64,000 bases of DNA from Dehalococcoidia bacterium (GTDB lineage: Bacteria; Chloroflexota; Dehalococcoidia; Lucifugimonadales; UBA3495): NCBI GenBank assembly GCA_012959605.1, contig DUCU01000032.1, positions 51,883-115,882 of the forward strand. Reading direction: 5' to 3'. This document shows positions 15,834-54,110 of this stretch, piece by piece; positions within the stretch are counted from its first letter, which is position 1; each line of letters starts with the position of its first letter. Both the position numbers and the translations under genes were made by a program. Below the pieces are notes generated by a model. That model made no database searches and was not told the DNA's origin. It was given only the letters and a program-made list of their open reading frames with translations.

Positions 15834-15900
15834 TCCCCTTAGACAGACGACCCTCCGTGGGCTAGAATGCCTGCAATCTGATTCAGGCTGGAGGTTGACC

Positions 15901-16710
15901 ATGTCGGGAATTTGGCCCGGTGAGACCCAGTGTGTAGTGCTGCTTGGCTTTGACATTGACGGGGTATCGTCCTGGTTAAACCGTGACCCGTCGTTTAAAG
16001 ACCACCCAAGCCTCATGTCCATGGCCGAATACGGTCCGTCAGTCGCTACTCCAAGAATCTTAGACATGCTGGACGCCCACTTGGTCCAAGCCAGCTTCTA
16101 CGTGCCGGGATACGTGGCCGAGACCCACGAAGAAATGGTCGCTGAAATCTTCCGCCGTGGCCACGAGATTGCCCATCATGGCTATATGCACGAACCGCCG
16201 TCCAGCCTCACCCGCGAGCAAGAGATAGACGTCATCGAGTCCGGCATCCGCATCCTCAGCGGGATCACCGGCGAGCAACCGTTGGGCTACCGTTCCCCAA
16301 GTTGGGAGCTTTCGGAGCATTCCCTGGAGTTACTGACCGACCACGGTTTCATCTACGACAGCAGCCTGATGGGAGACGACGCACCCTACATAGTCGAGTC
16401 TCCAACCAACGACAAATCCCTGGTTGAATTGCCCGTGCACTGGTTGCTGGACGATGCGCCAAACTTTGTCTACGCGCCGGTGGCCAACCGGCTTGGCCCC
16501 ATGCGAAACCCGGACGAGGTCTACCAAACATGGGCCGCTGAATTTGAAGGACTCTACCGATACGGCCGGGCCTTTACCCTCACTATGCACCCTCAGTACA
16601 TCGGGCGACCCGGTCGGCTTCTCATGCTGGAACGGTTGATTGAACACATCAAGTCGTTCCCCAACGTGGAATTCATGCGGGCCATAGACGTGGCCGAGAT
16701 GTGGCGGTAA
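15901..16710 (+). CDS. Polysaccharide deacetylase (CE4, PuuE/HpPgdA-like)
   Basis: FDID, EYG, GHEIAHHGYMH, GYRSP, YDSS and TMHP. Confidence 0.9.
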   Translation: MSGIWPGETQCVVLLGFDIDGVSSWLNRDPSFKDHPSLMSMAEYGPSVATPRILDMLDAHLVQASFYVPGYVAETHEEMVAEIFRRGHEIAHHGYMHEPPSSLTREQEIDVIESGIRILSGITGEQPLGYRSPSWELSEHSLELLTDHGFIYDSSLMGDDAPYIVESPTNDKSLVELPVHWLLDDAPNFVYAPVANRLGPMRNPDEVYQTWAAEFEGLYRYGRAFTLTMHPQYIGRPGRLLMLERLIEHIKSFPNVEFMRAIDVAEMWR

Positions 16711-17839: not shown

Positions 17840-17936
17840 GTCACCATCCAGTAATTCGGGACTGGCAACTTCTTGCCAACATGCAACATCAGAATTAACA
17901 TGGGTGCAGATTCGCCCGCATCTTCAGGAGCATAAA

Positions 17937-18239
17937 ATGCCTAAAGTTCATGACCGCGGCGGTTGGCCCAACGAAGACCCCATCGACCAATCCGAGCACG
18001 AGATGGAGGAATGGGAACGCAAGGTGGACGCACTCAACGGCGTGCTGGGCGACCTGGGCCTCAAGACTTCCGACCAACTACGTCGGGCCATCGAGAGCAT
18101 GGACCTGGCCACCTACGAGTCTCTGGCCTATTACGAAAAATGGACGGCCGCCATGGAGATGCTCCTGGTAGAGCAGGGTGTGATGACCACCGCAGAGATT
18201 GACGCCAAGATGGAAACCCTGAAACAGGGGCAAGCATAG
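17937..18239 (+). CDS. scnB: Thiocyanate hydrolase beta-like subunit (N-terminal half of NHase beta)
   Basis: HDRGG, WER, LRRAIES and YYEKW motifs. AGGAG RBS precedes ATG 17937. Confidence 0.75.
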   Translation: MPKVHDRGGWPNEDPIDQSEHEMEEWERKVDALNGVLGDLGLKTSDQLRRAIESMDLATYESLAYYEKWTAAMEMLLVEQGVMTTAEIDAKMETLKQGQA

Positions 18240-18241
18240 TC

Positions 18242-18538
18242 ATGGCCCAGTCTCCATCTGCCAAGTACAAACCAGGCGACCAAGTGCGCATCCGCGTGGG
18301 CGTTCCGCCAACCCATTTCCGGACCCCGGAATATGTGCAGGGGAAACAGGGCGAAATAGAAACCTCTTGGGGGGCTTACCCCAACCCTGAGGGCCTGGCT
18401 TACGGCGGCGACGGACTGCCGGCCCAGCCTCTCTACCTGGTTAAATTCGCCCAGACCGACCTATGGACCAACTACGAAGGCGCAGCAAAAGACGCCCTGT
18501 TACTAGACATCTACGAAAACTGGCTAGAGTCGATTTAA
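18242..18538 (+). CDS. scnA: Thiocyanate hydrolase alpha-like subunit (SH3-like C-terminal half of NHase beta)
   Basis: GDQVRI, HFRTPEYVQGKQG, LYLVKF...LW and DIYENWLE. Confidence 0.75.
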   Translation: MAQSPSAKYKPGDQVRIRVGVPPTHFRTPEYVQGKQGEIETSWGAYPNPEGLAYGGDGLPAQPLYLVKFAQTDLWTNYEGAAKDALLLDIYENWLESI

Positions 18539-18591
18539 ATCAAACAGACCCAGCTAAACAAAATAATTAGGCTGATTCAGGAGAGCATCCC

Positions 18592-19215
18592 ATGGCTGAC
18601 AACGGACACTCCCACGGCGACAACGCAGAATATTACGCACTACGGGCCGAGGCTATCCAAGCACTGCTGATTGAGAAGGGCGTCTGCACCATGGACGATA
18701 TTATGACCATGGCCGACAAGATTGACTCTCGCTCCCCCGCCGACGGCGCTAAGGTGCTAGCCCACGCCTGGGTTGACCCGGAATACAAAGCCAGGCTCCT
18801 GGCCGACGCCGAGTCTGCCCTCCTAGAACTAGGCTATGACTTGCCGGAGACGGCTCCCAAACTCACGGTTTTAGAGAACACGGACGACGTTCACAACATG
18901 GCCGTTTGCACGCTATGCTCCTGCTACCCCAGGGCCATCATTGGCCGACCACCCGCCTGGTACAAAGGCCTGGCCTACCGCTCTAGGGTCGTCGTTGACC
19001 CACGGGGTGTGCTGCAGGAGTTTGGCACGGAGCTTGATGAGGACGTGCAAGTCCGAGTGATCGACAGCAGCGCCGACTACCGCTATTTGGTCCTGCCCAA
19101 GCGCCCCGCCGGGACTGAAGGTATGAGCGAAGAAGACCTGGCCAAGTTGATCACCCAAGAAAGCATGATTGGGGTTGGTTTGGCTCTGACGCCGGAGCAA
19201 GTTAGCGCCAGCTAG
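18592..19215 (+). CDS. scnC: Co-type nitrile hydratase alpha / thiocyanate hydrolase gamma subunit
   Basis: VCTLCSCYP cobalt-binding motif followed by R rather than W. Also AWVDPEYKARLL and RYLVLPKRP. Confidence 0.85.
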   Translation: MADNGHSHGDNAEYYALRAEAIQALLIEKGVCTMDDIMTMADKIDSRSPADGAKVLAHAWVDPEYKARLLADAESALLELGYDLPETAPKLTVLENTDDVHNMAVCTLCSCYPRAIIGRPPAWYKGLAYRSRVVVDPRGVLQEFGTELDEDVQVRVIDSSADYRYLVLPKRPAGTEGMSEEDLAKLITQESMIGVGLALTPEQVSAS

Positions 19216-19234: not shown

Positions 19235-19269
19235 AAAAGTCATTCCAGATGCTATCTGGAATGACTTTT
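19235..19269. terminator. Bidirectional intrinsic terminator
   Basis: AAAAGTCATTCCAGAT-GCT-ATCTGGAATGACTTTT between convergent genes. Confidence 0.8.
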
Positions 19270-19299
19270 GTTTTTGCTGTGGTGACCCTGTAATCCGTA

Positions 19300-20399: not shown

Positions 20400-21287
20400 T
20401 TAGTTGTGATGAGCAAAGCCTGTGGCGTGGTAGATCGCATGTTTCAGCTCGATGGCCGCCATGGCTTGGCGGTATTCAGCCGAGGCGAAAACATCTCCAA
20501 AGACGTCAGAACCCAAATCGTTATGGATCAGGCTTGTCGCCGCGACGATGTTCTCTTCGTTCAACTCTTTCCCGACGAGAGCTTGTTCGACAGAAGGCCC
20601 GCGTGTGGGAATTGGTGTGAACCCGCCTACCGCTACTCTAGCGGCAGTGCAGATGTTGTTCTCCACGGTCACCACGATTCCAGCGCCCACCACGGCAAAG
20701 GACGTGGCCGGATGGGCCATTTTGGCGTACTCGGCATGCTGGTTGGCGGCCAAGACCGGCATCTCGATGGTTGTGAGAATCTCATTCTCTCCCAAGGCCG
20801 TCTCGAACGGACCAAGAAAGAAATCGTCGGCAGACACGGTTCGGGAACCGCCGCGCATGATGCCGCCAGTTCCCTGGATGGTGAACTTGGCGTCCATTAC
20901 CTTCAGCACCGTGGGCAGGTCTGATGCAGGGTCCGCGTGGGAGATGTTCCCGCCGATGGTCCCTCGGTTCCTCACCTGAGGATCACCGATGCCGTACGCC
21001 GTTTCCCAGAGGATACCGGCATTGTCTTTTACGTCATGTGAGTCGGCGATCTCTGCGTGGGTGGTGAGAGCGCCGATGCGCAGGATGCCGTTTGCGACGG
21101 ATATCCCCCGCATTTCCTCGATTCCGCCAATGTCGATCAGCATCAGAATGCTGGTCAGGCGCAATTTCATCATCGGCAAGAGACTGTGGCCGCCAGCAAT
21201 GATCTTGGCGCCGGGGTTGCTAGCTAGAAGCTGGATGGCTTCTGAGACGGAACTGGCTTTCTGGTAATCAAATTTTGTTGCAAACAT
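20400..21287 (-). CDS. coxM: CO dehydrogenase/xanthine oxidase family FAD-binding medium subunit
   Basis: AGGHSLLPMMKLR, RIGALTTH and IGDPQVRNRGTIGG. Confidence 0.9.
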   Translation of the reverse strand: MFATKFDYQKASSVSEAIQLLASNPGAKIIAGGHSLLPMMKLRLTSILMLIDIGGIEEMRGISVANGILRIGALTTHAEIADSHDVKDNAGILWETAYGIGDPQVRNRGTIGGNISHADPASDLPTVLKVMDAKFTIQGTGGIMRGGSRTVSADDFFLGPFETALGENEILTTIEMPVLAANQHAEYAKMAHPATSFAVVGAGIVVTVENNICTAARVAVGGFTPIPTRGPSVEQALVGKELNEENIVAATSLIHNDLGSDVFGDVFASAEYRQAMAAIELKHAIYHATGFAHHN

Positions 21288-21290
21288 CGT

Positions 21291-23642
21291 TTAGCTCCCC
21301 TGTTGCTGGCGAATGGCCCGCCAGACTTTTTCCGGGGTTAGTGGCATTTCCAGGCTGGTGATGCCCAGTGGTCGCAGAGCGTCGATCACCGCGTTGTACA
21401 CGGTAACCGTGGAGGCGATGGCCCCAGTCTCACCGATACCCTTTACGCCCAACGGGTTGTGGGGCGACGGCGTTTCGGTGCTAAGCACTTCCATGTTTGG
21501 CAGTAGGTGTGCCCGTGGCAGCGCGTAGTCGACCATGGAGCCAGTTATCAACTGGCCATCGTCGTTGTAGACCGCGCCCTCCCACAGAGCCTGCCCAATG
21601 CCTTGTACAACTCCGCCGTGAACCTGGCCTTCAACAATCATCGGGTTTATTTGAGGACCGCAGTCGTCGCCGGCGATATACCGCCGAATTACGATATGTC
21701 CGTTGTCGGCATCTACATCTACCACTGCCAAGTGGGTGCCGAAAGGGTAAACGAAGTTTGGCGGGTCATAGAAGGCCGAAGCCTCAAGACCGGGCTCCAT
21801 TCCTTCCGGCAGGTTCCAGGCCACGTTGGCCATGGTTGCCAACTCCTGGATTGACTTGGTCTGGTCTGGAGATCCCTTTACGGTGAAATGGCCGTCGACG
21901 TATTCAACGTCGGCCTCCGCGGCTTCCAGCAGGTGGGCTGCCAAGAGTCGGGCCTTTTCTTTGATCTTTCGGGCCGCGAGGACCATGGCCGCCGCGCCGA
22001 CTGCTGTGGTCCGGCTGCCGTAGGTTCCCCAGCCCATGGGGGTGTTGCTGGTGTCGCCGTGGACGATGGAAACATCGTCCACATCAACGCCTAATTCGTC
22101 AGATATTATCTGGGCAAAGGTTGTTTCCTCTCCCTGACCGTGGGGGGAGATTCCGGAGTAGACATTGACCTTTCCGGTGGGATGGAACCGCACAATCGCG
22201 CTCTCCCACAGACCACCACCGAAACCAACCGCACCAGCGACCTGGGAAGGGCCAAGGCCGCAGATTTCGGCATAGCAAGTAACACCGATGCCCATGTAAT
22301 GGCCGCTCTCCTGCAACCTGGTCTGCTCTTGGCGCAGGGCCTGATAATCGGCCTGGCCTAGAACCATGTTCAACAGCGGTTCGTAGTCGCCACTGTCGTA
22401 GGTGATACCGCTGGCAACGTCGTGTCCGTCTTCAAACTTGGGTATCAGGTTCTTCCGGCGCAGTTCAACGGGGTCAATACCCAGCTCGACTGCCAACAGG
22501 TCAACCAGTCGTTCCACCAAGAAGGTGGCTTCCGGACGACCCGCACCGCGGTAGGCATCCACCGGAGTAGTGTTGCTGAACACGCCGTAGACGTCGGCTT
22601 TGGTGGCTCCAATGTCGTAGGCGCCAGAGTAAATCAGCCCATGCAAAATGGTCGGCACACCGGGGCCGGCAGTGGAAAGGTAAGCCCCCATACCGGCGTA
22701 GATCTTGGTCCGGATGGCCGTGATCTTACCTTCTCGCGTCGCTGCCATCTCCACGTACTCAACATGGTCGCGGCCATGGATGGTAGACAAGAACCCCTCG
22801 GAACGGGTGGCGGTCCACTTGACCGGGAGGCCCAACTGCATGGAGCAGAAGGACGCGATCATCTCATCGGCGTACATGGGAATCTTGCTGCCAAACCCAC
22901 CACCGACTTCAGTAGCAATAACCCGTATCTTATGCTCGCCAATACCAGTGACCAATGAAGCCAAAAAGCGGCAGATATGAGGATTTTGACTGGTGCTCCA
23001 GAGAGTCAATTCCCCCGTGGCTCTTGTCCAGCTAGCCACTGCAGAGCGAGGTTCCATGGCGTTGGGAATCAACCGTTGTTGGATGATTTTGTCTTTAACA
23101 ATCACATCGGCAGCTTCAAATGCGACATCGGTGTCGCCGCCTTCGGCCACCCAGTGAAAGGCCTGGTTATTGGGTGCGTCTTCGTGCAACTGAGGCGCGC
23201 CCGGCTGCATCGCTGCTTCAGGGTTGGTTACCGCCGGCAGCGGTGAATAATCAACGTTAATCAATTCCAGGGCATCTTCTGCCTGGTATCGGTCCTCAGC
23301 CACCACCACGGCCACGGCGTCACCCTGATAGCGGGCCACATCTTTAGCAATGGATGGGTGGGCGACAGCCACCAAGTCTGCTCCCGGCGGAACCCAGGCG
23401 CAGGGGATGGGATTCAACACGCCGTCCGTATCAGCTCCGGTATATATCGCCACCACCCCTGGCGCTGCGGCCGCTGCGGAGGTATCTACACTATTAATCT
23501 TGGCGTGGGCGTGGGGACTGCGAAGGATGGCTGCGTAGAGCATCCCCGGAAGTTGAACATCGTCTGTGTAGGTTGCGCCGCCGGTGATTAACCTTGGGTC
23601 TTCACGGCGACGTATACCCGATCCAAATATTCTTGTCGTCAT
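21291..23642 (-). CDS. coxL: Molybdopterin large subunit, form II CoxL-like
   Basis: RREDPRLITG, VGGGFGSK, AYRGAGR, HGQG, EGQVHGG and KGIGE. Confidence 0.9.
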   Translation of the reverse strand: MTTRIFGSGIRRREDPRLITGGATYTDDVQLPGMLYAAILRSPHAHAKINSVDTSAAAAAPGVVAIYTGADTDGVLNPIPCAWVPPGADLVAVAHPSIAKDVARYQGDAVAVVVAEDRYQAEDALELINVDYSPLPAVTNPEAAMQPGAPQLHEDAPNNQAFHWVAEGGDTDVAFEAADVIVKDKIIQQRLIPNAMEPRSAVASWTRATGELTLWSTSQNPHICRFLASLVTGIGEHKIRVIATEVGGGFGSKIPMYADEMIASFCSMQLGLPVKWTATRSEGFLSTIHGRDHVEYVEMAATREGKITAIRTKIYAGMGAYLSTAGPGVPTILHGLIYSGAYDIGATKADVYGVFSNTTPVDAYRGAGRPEATFLVERLVDLLAVELGIDPVELRRKNLIPKFEDGHDVASGITYDSGDYEPLLNMVLGQADYQALRQEQTRLQESGHYMGIGVTCYAEICGLGPSQVAGAVGFGGGLWESAIVRFHPTGKVNVYSGISPHGQGEETTFAQIISDELGVDVDDVSIVHGDTSNTPMGWGTYGSRTTAVGAAAMVLAARKIKEKARLLAAHLLEAAEADVEYVDGHFTVKGSPDQTKSIQELATMANVAWNLPEGMEPGLEASAFYDPPNFVYPFGTHLAVVDVDADNGHIVIRRYIAGDDCGPQINPMIVEGQVHGGVVQGIGQALWEGAVYNDDGQLITGSMVDYALPRAHLLPNMEVLSTETPSPHNPLGVKGIGETGAIASTVTVYNAVIDALRPLGITSLEMPLTPEKVWRAIRQQQGS

Positions 23643-23644
23643 GG

Positions 23645-24109
23645 TTAGCTCCTCATTACTTCGGCGGCTGCCTGGATCGACTTAACGATGTTCTGGTAGC
23701 CGGTACAGCGACAGATGTTGCCCTTTAGTCCATCGCGGATTTCATCGTCAGATGGATTAGCATTTTTCTTGAGCAATTCCATCGTGGTGATGATCATTCC
23801 GGAGGTGCAGTAGCCGCATTGCAGGCCATGATTGTTCCAGAACGCCTCTTGCACCGGGTCTAATTCACCGTTATTAGAGACGCCTTCGATAGTCGTAATC
23901 TCACTTCCATTGGCTTGGACTGCCAGACAGGTGCAGGATTTAACCGTCTTGCCGTCCATGCTCACCACACATGCGCCACATTGGCTAGTGTCACAGCCAA
24001 TCTTGGTGCCCGTCAGCCCCAGATCGTCTCTGATGAAATGAACTAGCAGTAAGCGTGGATCTACGTCTTTTTCTTGGACTTTTCCGTTTACGGTTAGCTG
24101 AATATTCAA
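23645..24109 (-). CDS. coxS: 2x[2Fe-2S] small subunit
   Basis: [15 protein letters not shown] and CRCTGY. Confidence 0.92.
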
Positions 24110-51591: not shown

Positions 51592-52212
51592 GTGGCCCAC
51601 GCAGTAGAACACGAATATACAACCACTGGTTTAAACCACCGGAAAATGCTCATGTGGGTGTTTTTGGGGTCGGACTGTCTTTTCTTCGGCTCTTTGATCG
51701 CCACCTACATGGTCTATCGCGGCCAGAGTTTGGTCGGACCTTATCCCATCGACATCATCGATGTCCCGCTAACAACCGTCAGTACCTTTGTCTTGTTGAT
51801 GAGCAGCTTCGCCATGGTGCAAGCCTTATCGGCAACCCAAGCAGATAATAAGAAAGGACTCGTTACCTGGCTGCTGATTACAGCAGGGCTCGGAGCGATC
51901 TTCATAGGGTTCCAGATCTACGAGTTCAACTCTTTCAAGAATGAGGGCCTGACCTTGGGCGGCAACCTATTCGGTGCCACATTCTTTACGCTTACTGGCT
52001 TCCACGGCGCTCACGTGACCCTGGGAATCATTTGGCTGTTGGCCATGGCCTACATTGGCGGCAAAGGTCGCTTGGGCCCCAACACAGTTCTAGATGTTGA
52101 ACTCCTGGGCTTGTACTGGCACTTTGTTGACATTGTTTGGATTGTAATTTTCACTCTGTTGTACCTTATCGGCGGGTTCGATGCCGGTCCAGTGCCTATC
52201 CCAAGCCCATAA
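51592..52212 (+). CDS. ctaE: Cytochrome c oxidase subunit III
   Basis: TGFHGAHV and YWHFVDIVW. Confidence 0.95.
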   Translation: MAHAVEHEYTTTGLNHRKMLMWVFLGSDCLFFGSLIATYMVYRGQSLVGPYPIDIIDVPLTTVSTFVLLMSSFAMVQALSATQADNKKGLVTWLLITAGLGAIFIGFQIYEFNSFKNEGLTLGGNLFGATFFTLTGFHGAHVTLGIIWLLAMAYIGGKGRLGPNTVLDVELLGLYWHFVDIVWIVIFTLLYLIGGFDAGPVPIPSP

Positions 52213-52257
52213 AACCCATTCTGGACCGAACTCCATTAGGAGTCTCTAAGAAGTAAT

Positions 52258-53055
52258 ATGGCCCACGAAACCGAACATACATCGAATCACCCCACATTCA
52301 ATCAATATGTGTTTATCGCGATTGTCCTTTTCGCGATCACCATTGTTGAATTCGGACTGATCTGGGACCGGATTGGCATCGCAGACGACTTGGGTGTCAC
52401 CAAAATTCCGATACTGATTGGTCTCTCGGCGATAAAATTCGCCATCGTAATCATGTATTACATGCACTTGAAGTTTGATGATCGATTCTTCGGGACCGTC
52501 TTCATTGCCGGTTTGGTACTCGCGTTCGTGGTTGGTGGAGCTTTAATAACGCTTTTCATCGGTTTTGAAGCCAAGCCTCGTGAATACGCCTTGGCCCACG
52601 CTGTCCCATACGAAGGACATGAAGCTGCTGAAGAGCACGCAGCCGAAGTTGTCGAGCCTGGCACTGGCGCAGAAACGACCGTAGCATCCGGGCCCGTGGA
52701 GTTAGCTGTTGGCGTAGTGGGTGAAACACTCGCTTTCGACACGGCCAACATTACCGCAAAATCGGGTTCTGAAGTAACGATTACTTTCAAAAACTCTTCA
52801 GCTAACAACCAGCACAACCTGGTAATTGTTCAAGACGGGACCAAAGACGAGGTTGCCACCGACGGCACGACAGCCGGTCCTGACAACGACTGGGTAGCGC
52901 CCGGCGATGCCAGGGTGGTTGCCAACACTCCGCTATTGGCTTCGGGAGCCTCAGGCGAGGTGATTTTCACCGCTCCGGCCCCAGGCACCTATCAGTTCGT
53001 TTGTACCTTCCCAGGACATAACTTCACCATGTTCGGAGACTTCATAGTCAACTAA
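52258..53055 (+). CDS. ctaF: Cytochrome c oxidase subunit IV fused to a plastocyanin/azurin (auracyanin-like) domain
   Basis: K...V..YYMHLKFD subunit IV motif with 3 TM helices. C-terminal HNLV...YQFVCTFPGHNFTM type-1 copper site. Confidence 0.88.
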   Translation: MAHETEHTSNHPTFNQYVFIAIVLFAITIVEFGLIWDRIGIADDLGVTKIPILIGLSAIKFAIVIMYYMHLKFDDRFFGTVFIAGLVLAFVVGGALITLFIGFEAKPREYALAHAVPYEGHEAAEEHAAEVVEPGTGAETTVASGPVELAVGVVGETLAFDTANITAKSGSEVTITFKNSSANNQHNLVIVQDGTKDEVATDGTTAGPDNDWVAPGDARVVANTPLLASGASGEVIFTAPAPGTYQFVCTFPGHNFTMFGDFIVN

Positions 53056-53082
53056 TCCCGGTGAGCCCCGCTTTAATTGAGT

Positions 53083-53125
53083 AATGTAAAAGACCCTCCT
53101 GTATCACAGGAGGGTCTTTTACATT
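53083..53125. terminator. Bidirectional intrinsic terminator
   Basis: AATGTAAAAGACCCTCCTGT-ATC-ACAGGAGGGTCTTTTACATT perfect 20 bp stem. Confidence 0.9.
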
Positions 53126-53168
53126 GTCTCTTTATGTTCGTCGCTCTTACGTATTGGTCTGATTACCG

Positions 53169-54110
53169 CTAGACGGCATACCCTCCCAGAAACCCATCTT
53201 TAATTGGTTCGACTATTCTTTCGCCCATTTGTCTGGCGGCCGTCTTGAGCCCCTGTTGCGCAAAGAGTAGGTCCCTAGATGTAATCTCCAATTTGGATGA
53301 TGCGGCCAGTTTTACGGCATAGTCGGCCAGGAACCGGTCCACATGTGACTCGTCCTCAGCCATGCTTCTAAAAACCCGGTACATGGGCAGTGTCCGAACA
53401 AAGTTATGCACTTCATCTCGTGTCAGTTCAGGGTGTTGGTCGAGATTCAGTGAAATGCCAAAATCAATCAAGCGACAGGCTCCATTTAAGGCCACTAAAA
53501 GATGCGAGCGACCCTTGGGGTCGGAAAAGGTCACATCGTTGTAGTAAATGTCAGCCTGGTGCAATTGGCGGAGCATTTTGCCCACTTGAAAGCCAATTTG
53601 AGTTAAATGGTCATCTGTCTGCCGTTCTTCGGGTAATTCGGTGAAAAACGTCCCGGAAACAAATTCTTCGGTCAGGTAACCCGGCAAGGTTTCCAACTGA
53701 ACCGGCCCAACGCCAATCTGCCCGGCGATGAGAGCCAGCTGGTCTTCCCTGACGCTCTGTAGCGGTTTGATGACAACCGCCCGGTCGGCAAAGATCAGCG
53801 TGACCACCATTCCTCTGGCGCGGCCGGAGAATTCCAACTTTGGCAGGTCCGATCCAGACCGCAGCCGCTCGAACACTTCTGGGAAGAACGCATAACGGGA
53901 GAGCGCTTTTACCGTAGGGTCTGCAGTGAGACGCAGAAACAACGGTAGCTCCAAATCAAATAATTTCCAGAAGGGCGGCATATGCTCGGGAACAGGCATC
54001 CCCGGAGCCGGCCGCATTGCGTCGATCACTTCTTCGGGCGGCTTTGGTGGTGAAGGTGCAATAGCACGTCTAATGACCGCTACTTCTTCAGGTGAGTAGT
54101 CCAGTGGCAT
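53169..54110 (-). CDS. Atypical protein-kinase-like fold protein
   Basis: Gly loop SGRARG, VVIK, TEEFVSG, LHQADIYYNDV and LIDFG. Confidence 0.7.
   Translation of the reverse strand: MPLDYSPEEVAVIRRAIAPSPPKPPEEVIDAMRPAPGMPVPEHMPPFWKLFDLELPLFLRLTADPTVKALSRYAFFPEVFERLRSGSDLPKLEFSGRARGMVVTLIFADRAVVIKPLQSVREDQLALIAGQIGVGPVQLETLPGYLTEEFVSGTFFTELPEERQTDDHLTQIGFQVGKMLRQLHQADIYYNDVTFSDPKGRSHLLVALNGACRLIDFGISLNLDQHPELTRDEVHNFVRTLPMYRVFRSMAEDESHVDRFLADYAVKLAASSKLEITSRDLLFAQQGLKTAARQMGERIVEPIKDGFLGGYAV

Follow-up and report, generated by a model that had tools for sequence, protein, structure and literature searches.

A cassette of three genes in a Dehalococcoidia bacterium raises the question of whether an enzyme of the nitrile hydratase family whose β subunit is divided between two proteins hydrates organic nitriles or hydrolyses thiocyanate. 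The cassette occupies positions 17,937–19,215 of the stretch analysed here (the window), 64,000 nucleotides of contig DUCU01000032.1 (assembly GCA_012959605.1, positions 51,883–115,882). An earlier, sequence-only reading of the window proposed a relative of thiocyanate hydrolase (SCNase), on the grounds of the divided β subunit, the gene order and two arginines taken to be diagnostic of that enzyme. The locus is instead a conserved, activator-less, split-β cobalt nitrile hydratase (NHase), with a layout as characterized in Streptomyces. That the three genes encode one enzyme of this type, composed of an α subunit and two β half-subunits, is assigned a probability of roughly 75%.

A cassette with a divided β subunit

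The three genes are separate open reading frames (ORFs) arranged head to tail on the plus strand. The first, b1 (positions 17937–18239), encodes 100 residues matching the N-terminal half of the β subunit (PF21006, NHase_beta_N; 76 bits), and the second, b2 (18242–18538), encodes 98 residues matching the SH3-like C-terminal half (PF02211, NHase_beta_C; 80 bits). The third (18592–19215) encodes the 207-residue, Co-type metal-binding α subunit (PF02979, NHase_alpha; 259 bits). The frame of b2 differs from that of b1, and its ATG lies 2 nucleotides past the b1 stop codon. Each of the three genes has its own ATG with a purine-rich, Shine–Dalgarno-like stretch on its 5′ side, which is AGGAG in the case of b1. 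Coordinates, start codons and Pfam halves agree with the split β genes with their own starts that the sequence-only reading had described. On the full-length β model TIGR03888, b1 covers positions 1–98 and b2 positions 135–225; the approximately 35 middle residues of the β subunit (model positions 99–134) are absent from the two proteins, not frame-shifted.

The metal motif of the α subunit is VCTLCSCYPR, in which V-C-T-L-C-S-C spans residues 105–111 (with cysteines C106, C109 and C111) and is followed by two putative pocket residues, Arg114 (+3 after the third cysteine) and Arg119. The LRRAIE motif of b1 occupies residues 48–53; both motifs are present as first reported. A second conserved β arginine is R27 of b2, within H-F-R-T-P. 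In an alignment of 21 b1 proteins, the invariant positions are D6, G8, G9, W26, E27, D46, R49, E53, Y60, Y65 and E79. The N terminus of the α subunit (window positions 18592–18630) is short and contains histidines (H6 and H8); His-rich N termini are longer in the SCNase γ subunit and in the α subunit of a Streptomyces three-gene enzyme, and this segment may serve activator-less enzymes as a tail that captures metal.

Relationship to nitrile hydratases and thiocyanate hydrolase

For all three proteins, the nearest solved structures are Co-type NHases. The α subunit passes the NCBIfam model for NHase α subunits (TIGR01323, nitrile_alph; 252.9 bits against a cut-off of 249.85) and fails the model for the SCNase γ subunit (TIGR03887, thiocyan_alph; 182.4 bits, or 181.7 on the genome, against a cut-off of 291.45). 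Its E values range from 1e-63 to 1e-51 for solved Co-type NHase α chains and from 1e-46 to 1e-44 for the Fe-type chains, compared with 5.8e-41 for the solved SCNase γ chain. The two β halves follow the same order, b1 matching solved NHase β chains at 4e-11 and the SCNase β chain at 1.7e-4, and b2 matching NHase β chains at 2.6e-11 and the SCNase α chain at 1.3e-6.

The alignments place b1 on residues 3–97 of solved NHase β subunits and b2 on residues 127–217 of the Pseudomonas putida Co-NHase β subunit, with R27 on the arginine of its H-T-R. R49, Y65 and W69 of b1, together with R27 of b2, align to catalytic and pocket residues of solved NHases, with little or no variation across the 21-sequence alignment. 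Profile and structure matches therefore bear out a three-polypeptide, Co-type member of the NHase family in the order β N-half, β C-half and metal subunit; the SCNase-like specificity proposed along with it is not supported, given the TIGR03887 score and the better match of every subunit to NHases.

The division of the β subunit is natural

The distribution of the split was followed in three samples. The first was drawn evenly from the order to which the genome belongs; of its 151 genomes, 64 carried an α homologue, and the 29 best other loci were examined. Separate b1 and b2 genes precede α in 19 of these, b2 alone is present in 3, no β gene lies within 1.5 kb in 4, and 3 are classical, with a fused β gene of approximately 225–240 codons followed by α and then by a small β-like accessory gene. 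The four loci without a nearby β gene belong to one genus and have a b1–b2 pair elsewhere in the genome in all four cases. In this lone-α genus (genomes G411, G500, G466 and G527; loci L052, L053, L055, L056 and L076), the two genes of the distant pair are adjacent to each other; in G411 no β half lies within 8 kb of α and the pair is approximately 2.5 Mb away, and in G500, G466 and G527 the β search around α covered 1.5 kb.

The second sample was phylum-wide and comprised 401 genomes, of which 47 had an NHase_beta_N match. Among the 30 loci fetched, 25 have a fused β gene (with the accessory gene in 14 of the 25), 3 are split, 1 has b1 only, at a contig end, and 1 encodes a βN–α fusion. Three of the 30 (L012, L018 and L023, of genomes G038, G227 and G272) are from genomes marked unpublished; they are included in the tables and trees, and no claim is based on them alone. 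The third sample, one genome per prokaryote species scanned with the alignment of 21 b1 proteins, yielded at least 473 b1 relatives. In all 80 of the best loci among these relatives, b1, b2 and α are separate ORFs on one strand, and an extra b1-like accessory gene is present in none of the 80. By record title, the 80 loci are mostly from Dehalococcoidia/SAR202, and also from Gemmatimonadaceae, Latescibacterota, Gammaproteobacteria, Rubrobacteraceae, Acidimicrobiia, another actinomycete and Rokubacteria.

The window locus is also covered by approximately 99% identical contigs from four seawater RNA libraries, produced in four studies, with all three genes on single contigs in three of the four libraries and with no indel. 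These contigs span the neighbouring genes on both strands, and they are used here for the absence of an indel, not as proof of transcription; that absence excludes an assembly frameshift. The different frames of b1 and b2, with only 2 nucleotides from stop codon to next ATG, are what would be seen if a single β gene had been broken by a recent frameshift or by an artefact. The conservation of an identical split across several phyla, in every one of the 80 loci, refutes this explanation, and the loss of model positions 99–134 in place of a shift of frame, the start codon and ribosome-binding stretch of each half and the four independent RNA-library assemblies point the same way, so that its probability is negligible. 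The split of the β subunit is natural.

Other states of the family were encountered among the relatives. A β half is apparently fused to the α N terminus in proteins of approximately 290–330 residues (L028 on contig C56 of genome G026, P0122, P0124 and P0144), and fully fused βN–βC–α proteins have 400–600 residues. The nitrile hydratase family occurs in many states of fission and fusion.

Arginines and the active-site pocket

A 2013 paper is said to have identified β-Arg90 and γ-Arg136 as the selectivity residues of SCNase, and counterparts of both had been placed in the window. The residue register was set with the PGAP-annotated scnC of Azospirillum ramasamyi plasmid NZ_CP029832.1 and with HMMER alignments to the Thiobacillus thioparus chains. 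The T. thioparus γ chain reads CSCYP-R136, with tryptophan at this position in PDB 3vyg_C, and the β chain reads E88-E89-R90-R91-R92-K93. R114 of the α subunit corresponds to the γ-136 position, three residues after the third cysteine as in 2dd4_C, and this half of the claim stands. The other half does not. HMMER aligns L48-R49-R50 of b1 with F/Y-R-H of solved NHase β subunits, and MAFFT L-INS-i aligns R90-R91-R92 of SCNase both with F-R-x of NHases and with L48-R49-R50 of b1. It follows from these alignments that R49 is the universally conserved arginine, that R50 replaces the histidine of NHases and that the β-Arg90 position is a leucine. The counterpart of β-Arg90 is Leu48 by MAFFT L-INS-i or Gln47 in the ungapped phmmer register, and is arginine in neither; across the 80 related loci it is L in 43, M in 32, H in 3, N in 1, I in 1 and R in none. 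The supposed departure of LRR from the F-R of NHases is consequently no departure at its second residue, which is the arginine common to all.

The arginine at the γ-136 position is not specific to SCNase. Among representatives of the 150 nearest α clusters at 50% identity, 138 contain the motif, and CSCYP is followed by R in 52, by W in 31 and by another residue in 55; the statement that NHases have PW here is true of their classical branch only. In the 80 split-β loci, arginine is found at this position in 51, threonine in 27 and serine and glycine in 1 each, and b1 keeps its R-R pair in 80 of 80 relatives, whichever of these four residues is present in α. With the b1 pair universal in this set, and both arginine features found in a Streptomyces three-gene NHase, the arginines cannot serve as a diagnosis of SCNase.

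The residue after the motif covaries with the residue after the b1 pair: 48 of the 80 loci pair α R with b1 R-R-A, 27 pair α T with R-R-G, and the remaining 5 have other combinations. In the IQ-TREE tree of α subunits described below, a T/G group is nested among R/A sequences. This covariation looks like pocket tuning inside one enzyme family and not like a mark of SCNase. As judged from the alignments, the pocket has a more polar and basic character than that of the classical enzymes, with Arg114 of α in place of Trp, Leu48 of b1 in place of Phe and Arg50 of b1 in place of His. Loci of the R type usually also have Gly-Arg following the motif (44 of 51).

Phylogeny and comparison with known enzymes

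Two trees of α subunits were calculated, one with FastTree from 145 sequences and one with an IQ-TREE quick search from 77. In both, the window α falls in a well-supported split-β group, which in the IQ-TREE tree has 97% SH-aLRT support and 28 rows (27 with split β genes and 1 with its β genes elsewhere in the genome). The Trp-type enzymes of the classical branch, four named anchors among them, cluster separately with support of 98 and 95. The single SCNase γ anchor is in neither of these groups but in a third, alongside the Streptomyces three-gene α subunit and numerous long fused forms; the deep branches of these midpoint-rooted trees are weak (79–91), and SCNase is represented by one anchor.

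The βN–βC–α layout without an activator is already characterized in the ScNHase of Streptomyces canus CGMCC 13662 (Guo et al. 2020). According to that paper (PMC7329996), the gene order is anhD-anhE-anhA, corresponding to the β N-part, the β C-part and α; the S. canus genome has no activator gene; and AnhA takes up cobalt under reducing conditions with no activator present, AnhD acting in vitro as a metal and self-subunit-swapping chaperone. The same paper lists acetamiprid, thiacloprid and benzonitrile as substrates, and indole-3-acetonitrile as a compound that is not converted. Compared by this published description, ScNHase and the window enzyme have in common their gene order, three polypeptides, Co type and lack of an activator. 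A Streptomyces sp. plasmid, on which PGAP uses the name nthA, has three genes in this arrangement (111, 102 and 226 residues). Its α subunit likewise contains CSCYPR, and its β N-part has K-R-R; identities to the window proteins are 49% for α, 34% for b1 and 43% for b2. An aquaporin gene and a HoxN-type transporter gene lie downstream on the plasmid, and the window locus lacks both. If the plasmid residues can be extended by inference to the assayed S. canus and Streptomyces rimosus enzymes, these too would carry the arginines.

According to PMC8574189, the toyocamycin nitrile hydratase is a hexamer, (αβγ)2, whose subunits measure 21.2, 10 and 11.4 kDa. It has no activator, and its α subunit alone is reported to be competent in work cited in PMC7329996. 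This enzyme, ToyJKL of S. rimosus, is encoded in a deazapurine antibiotic cluster, whereas no such genes lie near the window locus.

ScnABC of T. thioparus (PDB 2DD4/2DD5) resembles the window enzyme in its split β subunit, gene order, CTLCSCYPR and arginine at γ-136. It differs in having the β-90 arginine, a β N-terminal extension, a γ insertion and an activator, all of which the window enzyme lacks. The classical Co-NHases, such as those of Rhodococcus rhodochrous and Parageobacillus, belong to the same fold families and have the same metal motif and the same catalytic Arg, Arg and Tyr; the window α is 50–53% identical to their α subunits and passes the same NCBIfam model. They have a single β subunit of approximately 225 residues, Trp after CSCYP, F-R-H in β and an accessory protein, in each of which the window enzyme differs, and their operons often include a Co transporter and an amidase. 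The Azospirillum ramasamyi scnC (L002), whose product matches the T. thioparus SCNase γ subunit with a phmmer E value of 2.9e-104, is preceded by a single fused β gene of 283 codons and followed by a HupE/UreJ transporter gene, with IS elements flanking the locus. This pairing of scnC with a fused β gene indicates that SCNase-type enzymes are not always three-subunit enzymes.

Activator, cobalt and amidase genes

The genome is 91.7% complete and contains one α gene. As first reported, there is no activator beside the cassette. A genome search with the accessory-protein model TIGR03889 returned only b1 itself, at 26.3 bits against a cut-off of 46, so that no activator scores above the cut-off anywhere in the genome. 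NicO, CbiM and HupE/UreJ cobalt or nickel transporters were not found in the 91.7% complete genome, nor was a candidate carbonyl sulfide (COS) hydrolase of the β-carbonic-anhydrase family (PF00484). The thiocyanate proposal had suggested looking in the genome for an activator, a Co transporter and a COS hydrolase; among the families named here, none of the three was found. Amidase-signature family matches number 14.

An orphan ORF of 86 residues resembling the NHase β N-half (PF21006, 64.7 bits) is present elsewhere in the same genome (contig C66, positions 51989–53638), immediately following an amidase-signature gene of the same strand, with no α or β C-half gene nearby. It may be the remnant of an amidase–NHase operon, or a stand-alone chaperone.

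Proposed mechanism

From these correspondences, a scheme for the assembly, cobalt use, chaperoning and chemistry of the enzyme can be inferred. The quaternary form is probably (α–βN–βC)2, as in known three-subunit enzymes. Co(III) would be bound by C106, C109, S110 and C111 of the α subunit, with the two later cysteines oxidized post-translationally and held by Arg49 of b1 and Arg27 of b2; Tyr65 and Trp69 of b1 would complete the pocket. In place of an activator, b1 probably doubles as the α-subunit chaperone, by analogy with AnhD most likely serving in both metal delivery and subunit swapping. The most likely reaction is the hydration of an organic nitrile, in which water would be added to give the amide; ammonia could then be released from the amide by one of the many amidases of the genome or by another amidohydrolase.

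Several observations weigh against a cobalt NHase working in this way. Each β half scores below the full-length β equivalog cut-off of TIGR03888 (62.9 and 75.6 for b1 and b2, against 152.2), although this is expected for halves. No NicO, CbiM or HupE/UreJ transporter that could supply cobalt is found in the genome as assembled. The Streptomyces three-gene α subunit lies outside the clade of the window α, and the properties of ScNHase are therefore transferred by analogy, not by orthology. Finally, neither an amidase nor a regulator accompanies the cassette consistently, whether in 16 related loci of 13–17 kb or in the flanks of the 80 loci, which were compared for this purpose; genomic context accordingly gives no substrate.

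Alternative readings

In a thiocyanate hydrolase, SCN− would be bound in an arginine-lined pocket and converted to COS and NH3. The split β subunit and a gene order matching scnB-scnA-scnC would fit such an enzyme, as would R114 of α at the position of T. thioparus γ-Arg136, where PDB 3vyg_C has W, and R50 of b1 opposite SCNase β-Arg92. Against these stand the failure of the α subunit at the TIGR03887 cut-off (182.4 against 291.45), the last place of the SCNase chains among the full-length solved relatives of each of the three proteins, and Leu48 at the β-Arg90 position, which is never arginine in any of the 80 relatives. b1 also lacks the N-terminal extension of approximately 43 residues of the SCNase β subunit (H5 of b1 aligns to residue 48 of 2dd4_B), and α is approximately 10 residues shorter than the γ subunit (181 against 191 aligned residues of 2dd4_C). 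Neither an activator nor a PF00484-family COS hydrolase candidate is found in the 91.7% complete genome, the γ anchor is outside the clade of the window α in both trees, and the split is not specific to SCNase, the Azospirillum scnC being paired with a fused 283-residue β subunit. Thiocyanate hydrolysis is on this evidence very improbable. Equally hard to sustain is a deazapurine nitrile hydratase like ToyJKL, which would convert a 7-cyano-7-deazapurine of the toyocamycin/preQ0 type to the carboxamide. The subunit sizes are nearly equal (21.2, 10 and 11.4 kDa for ToyJKL, against 207, 100 and 98 residues), and both enzymes would comprise three polypeptides without an activator; however, no deazapurine or queuosine genes are present near the locus or in the 16 related 13–17 kb loci, and none recur around the 80 loci. 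The toy genes, moreover, reportedly begin with α.

A third possibility is an NHase whose specialized substrate is not thiocyanate but another small nitrile, anionic or strongly polar, such as a cyano-carboxylate or a cyano-amino acid. Its charge would be recognized by Arg114 and Arg119 of α and Arg50 of b1, which add three basic residues around the motif relative to the classical enzymes, and the covariation of the α +3 residue with b1 (R/A in 48, T/G in 27 and other pairs in 5 of the 80 loci) suggests a tuned pair of specificity residues. That these residues line the pocket is deduced from alignment to known structures; CSCYPR and RR also occur in the Streptomyces three-gene NHase, and the characterized enzyme of this layout takes neutral nitriles. 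The neighbourhood comparison, too, revealed no transporter or pathway genes that point to such a substrate, and this specialization is unlikely. Slightly better odds, still well short of probable, can be given to a related proposal on the clade as a whole, that the α +3 residue (R/T) and the residue after RR in b1 (A/G) form a specificity switch, with the R/A subtype found in this SAR202 genome tuned to a small nitrile of polar or anionic character, for which thiocyanate is a remote candidate. If true, deep-ocean heterotrophs would gain an unrecognized pool of nitrile nitrogen, and the marine amide pool would be fed. Hydration of an organic nitrile by a split-β cobalt NHase remains the preferred reading of the locus.

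Occurrence and significance

The enzyme is common among the SAR202 bacteria, an abundant group of the dark ocean, with an α homologue in 64 of the 151 genomes sampled from the order; near-identical copies are present in several seawater DNA and RNA libraries. No member of the mostly marine split-β clade appears to have been assayed, and the substrate of one would for this reason inform the cycling of nitrile and amide nitrogen in the sea. To enzymologists, the clade presents many natural Co-NHases that lack an activator, together with a covarying pair of pocket residues. For annotation, the combination of CSCYPR with a split β subunit does not indicate a thiocyanate hydrolase.

Genomic neighbourhood

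The cassette is followed by a terminator-like hairpin on the plus strand (positions 19235–19279), which begins 20 nucleotides past the α stop codon and has a 16-pair stem, a 3-nucleotide loop and then a T-run; it was located by consensus scan and sequence and is a pattern match only. Upstream, the 97-nucleotide gap between an LLM oxidoreductase gene and b1 contains a sigma-70-like promoter match on the plus strand (17873–17901; 9 of 12 hexamer matches), which is weak, because the scan of the region returned 5 such sites against 2.4 expected by chance.

The neighbours of the cassette are heterogeneous between genomes. Those that recur are genes for seryl-tRNA synthetase, a CE4 deacetylase, Fic and SurE and Cox-like genes; they form a synteny block restricted to R-type loci of Dehalococcoidia, and were set aside as functional partners for that reason. 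The CE4 gene of the window (15895–16710, plus strand), upstream of the cassette, is annotated as a ‘polysaccharide deacetylase’ and is weakly PuuE-allantoinase-like. Such a gene precedes the cassette on the same strand in 24 of the 51 loci of the R type and in none of the other 29, and the gene between it and the NHase genes is variable, being the LLM oxidoreductase gene here and Fic elsewhere. The CE4 protein could be an amide-hydrolysing partner, or its position could reflect conserved synteny only; as its gene is inside the seryl-tRNA synthetase-to-SurE block confined to Dehalococcoidia, it is treated as a lead only. On the minus strand, adjoining surE, lies an operon for a CoxS/CoxM/CoxL-like molybdenum hydroxylase (20400–24109; 154, 295 and 783 residues), the synteny of which with the NHase locus is kept in a genome of the same family (L065).

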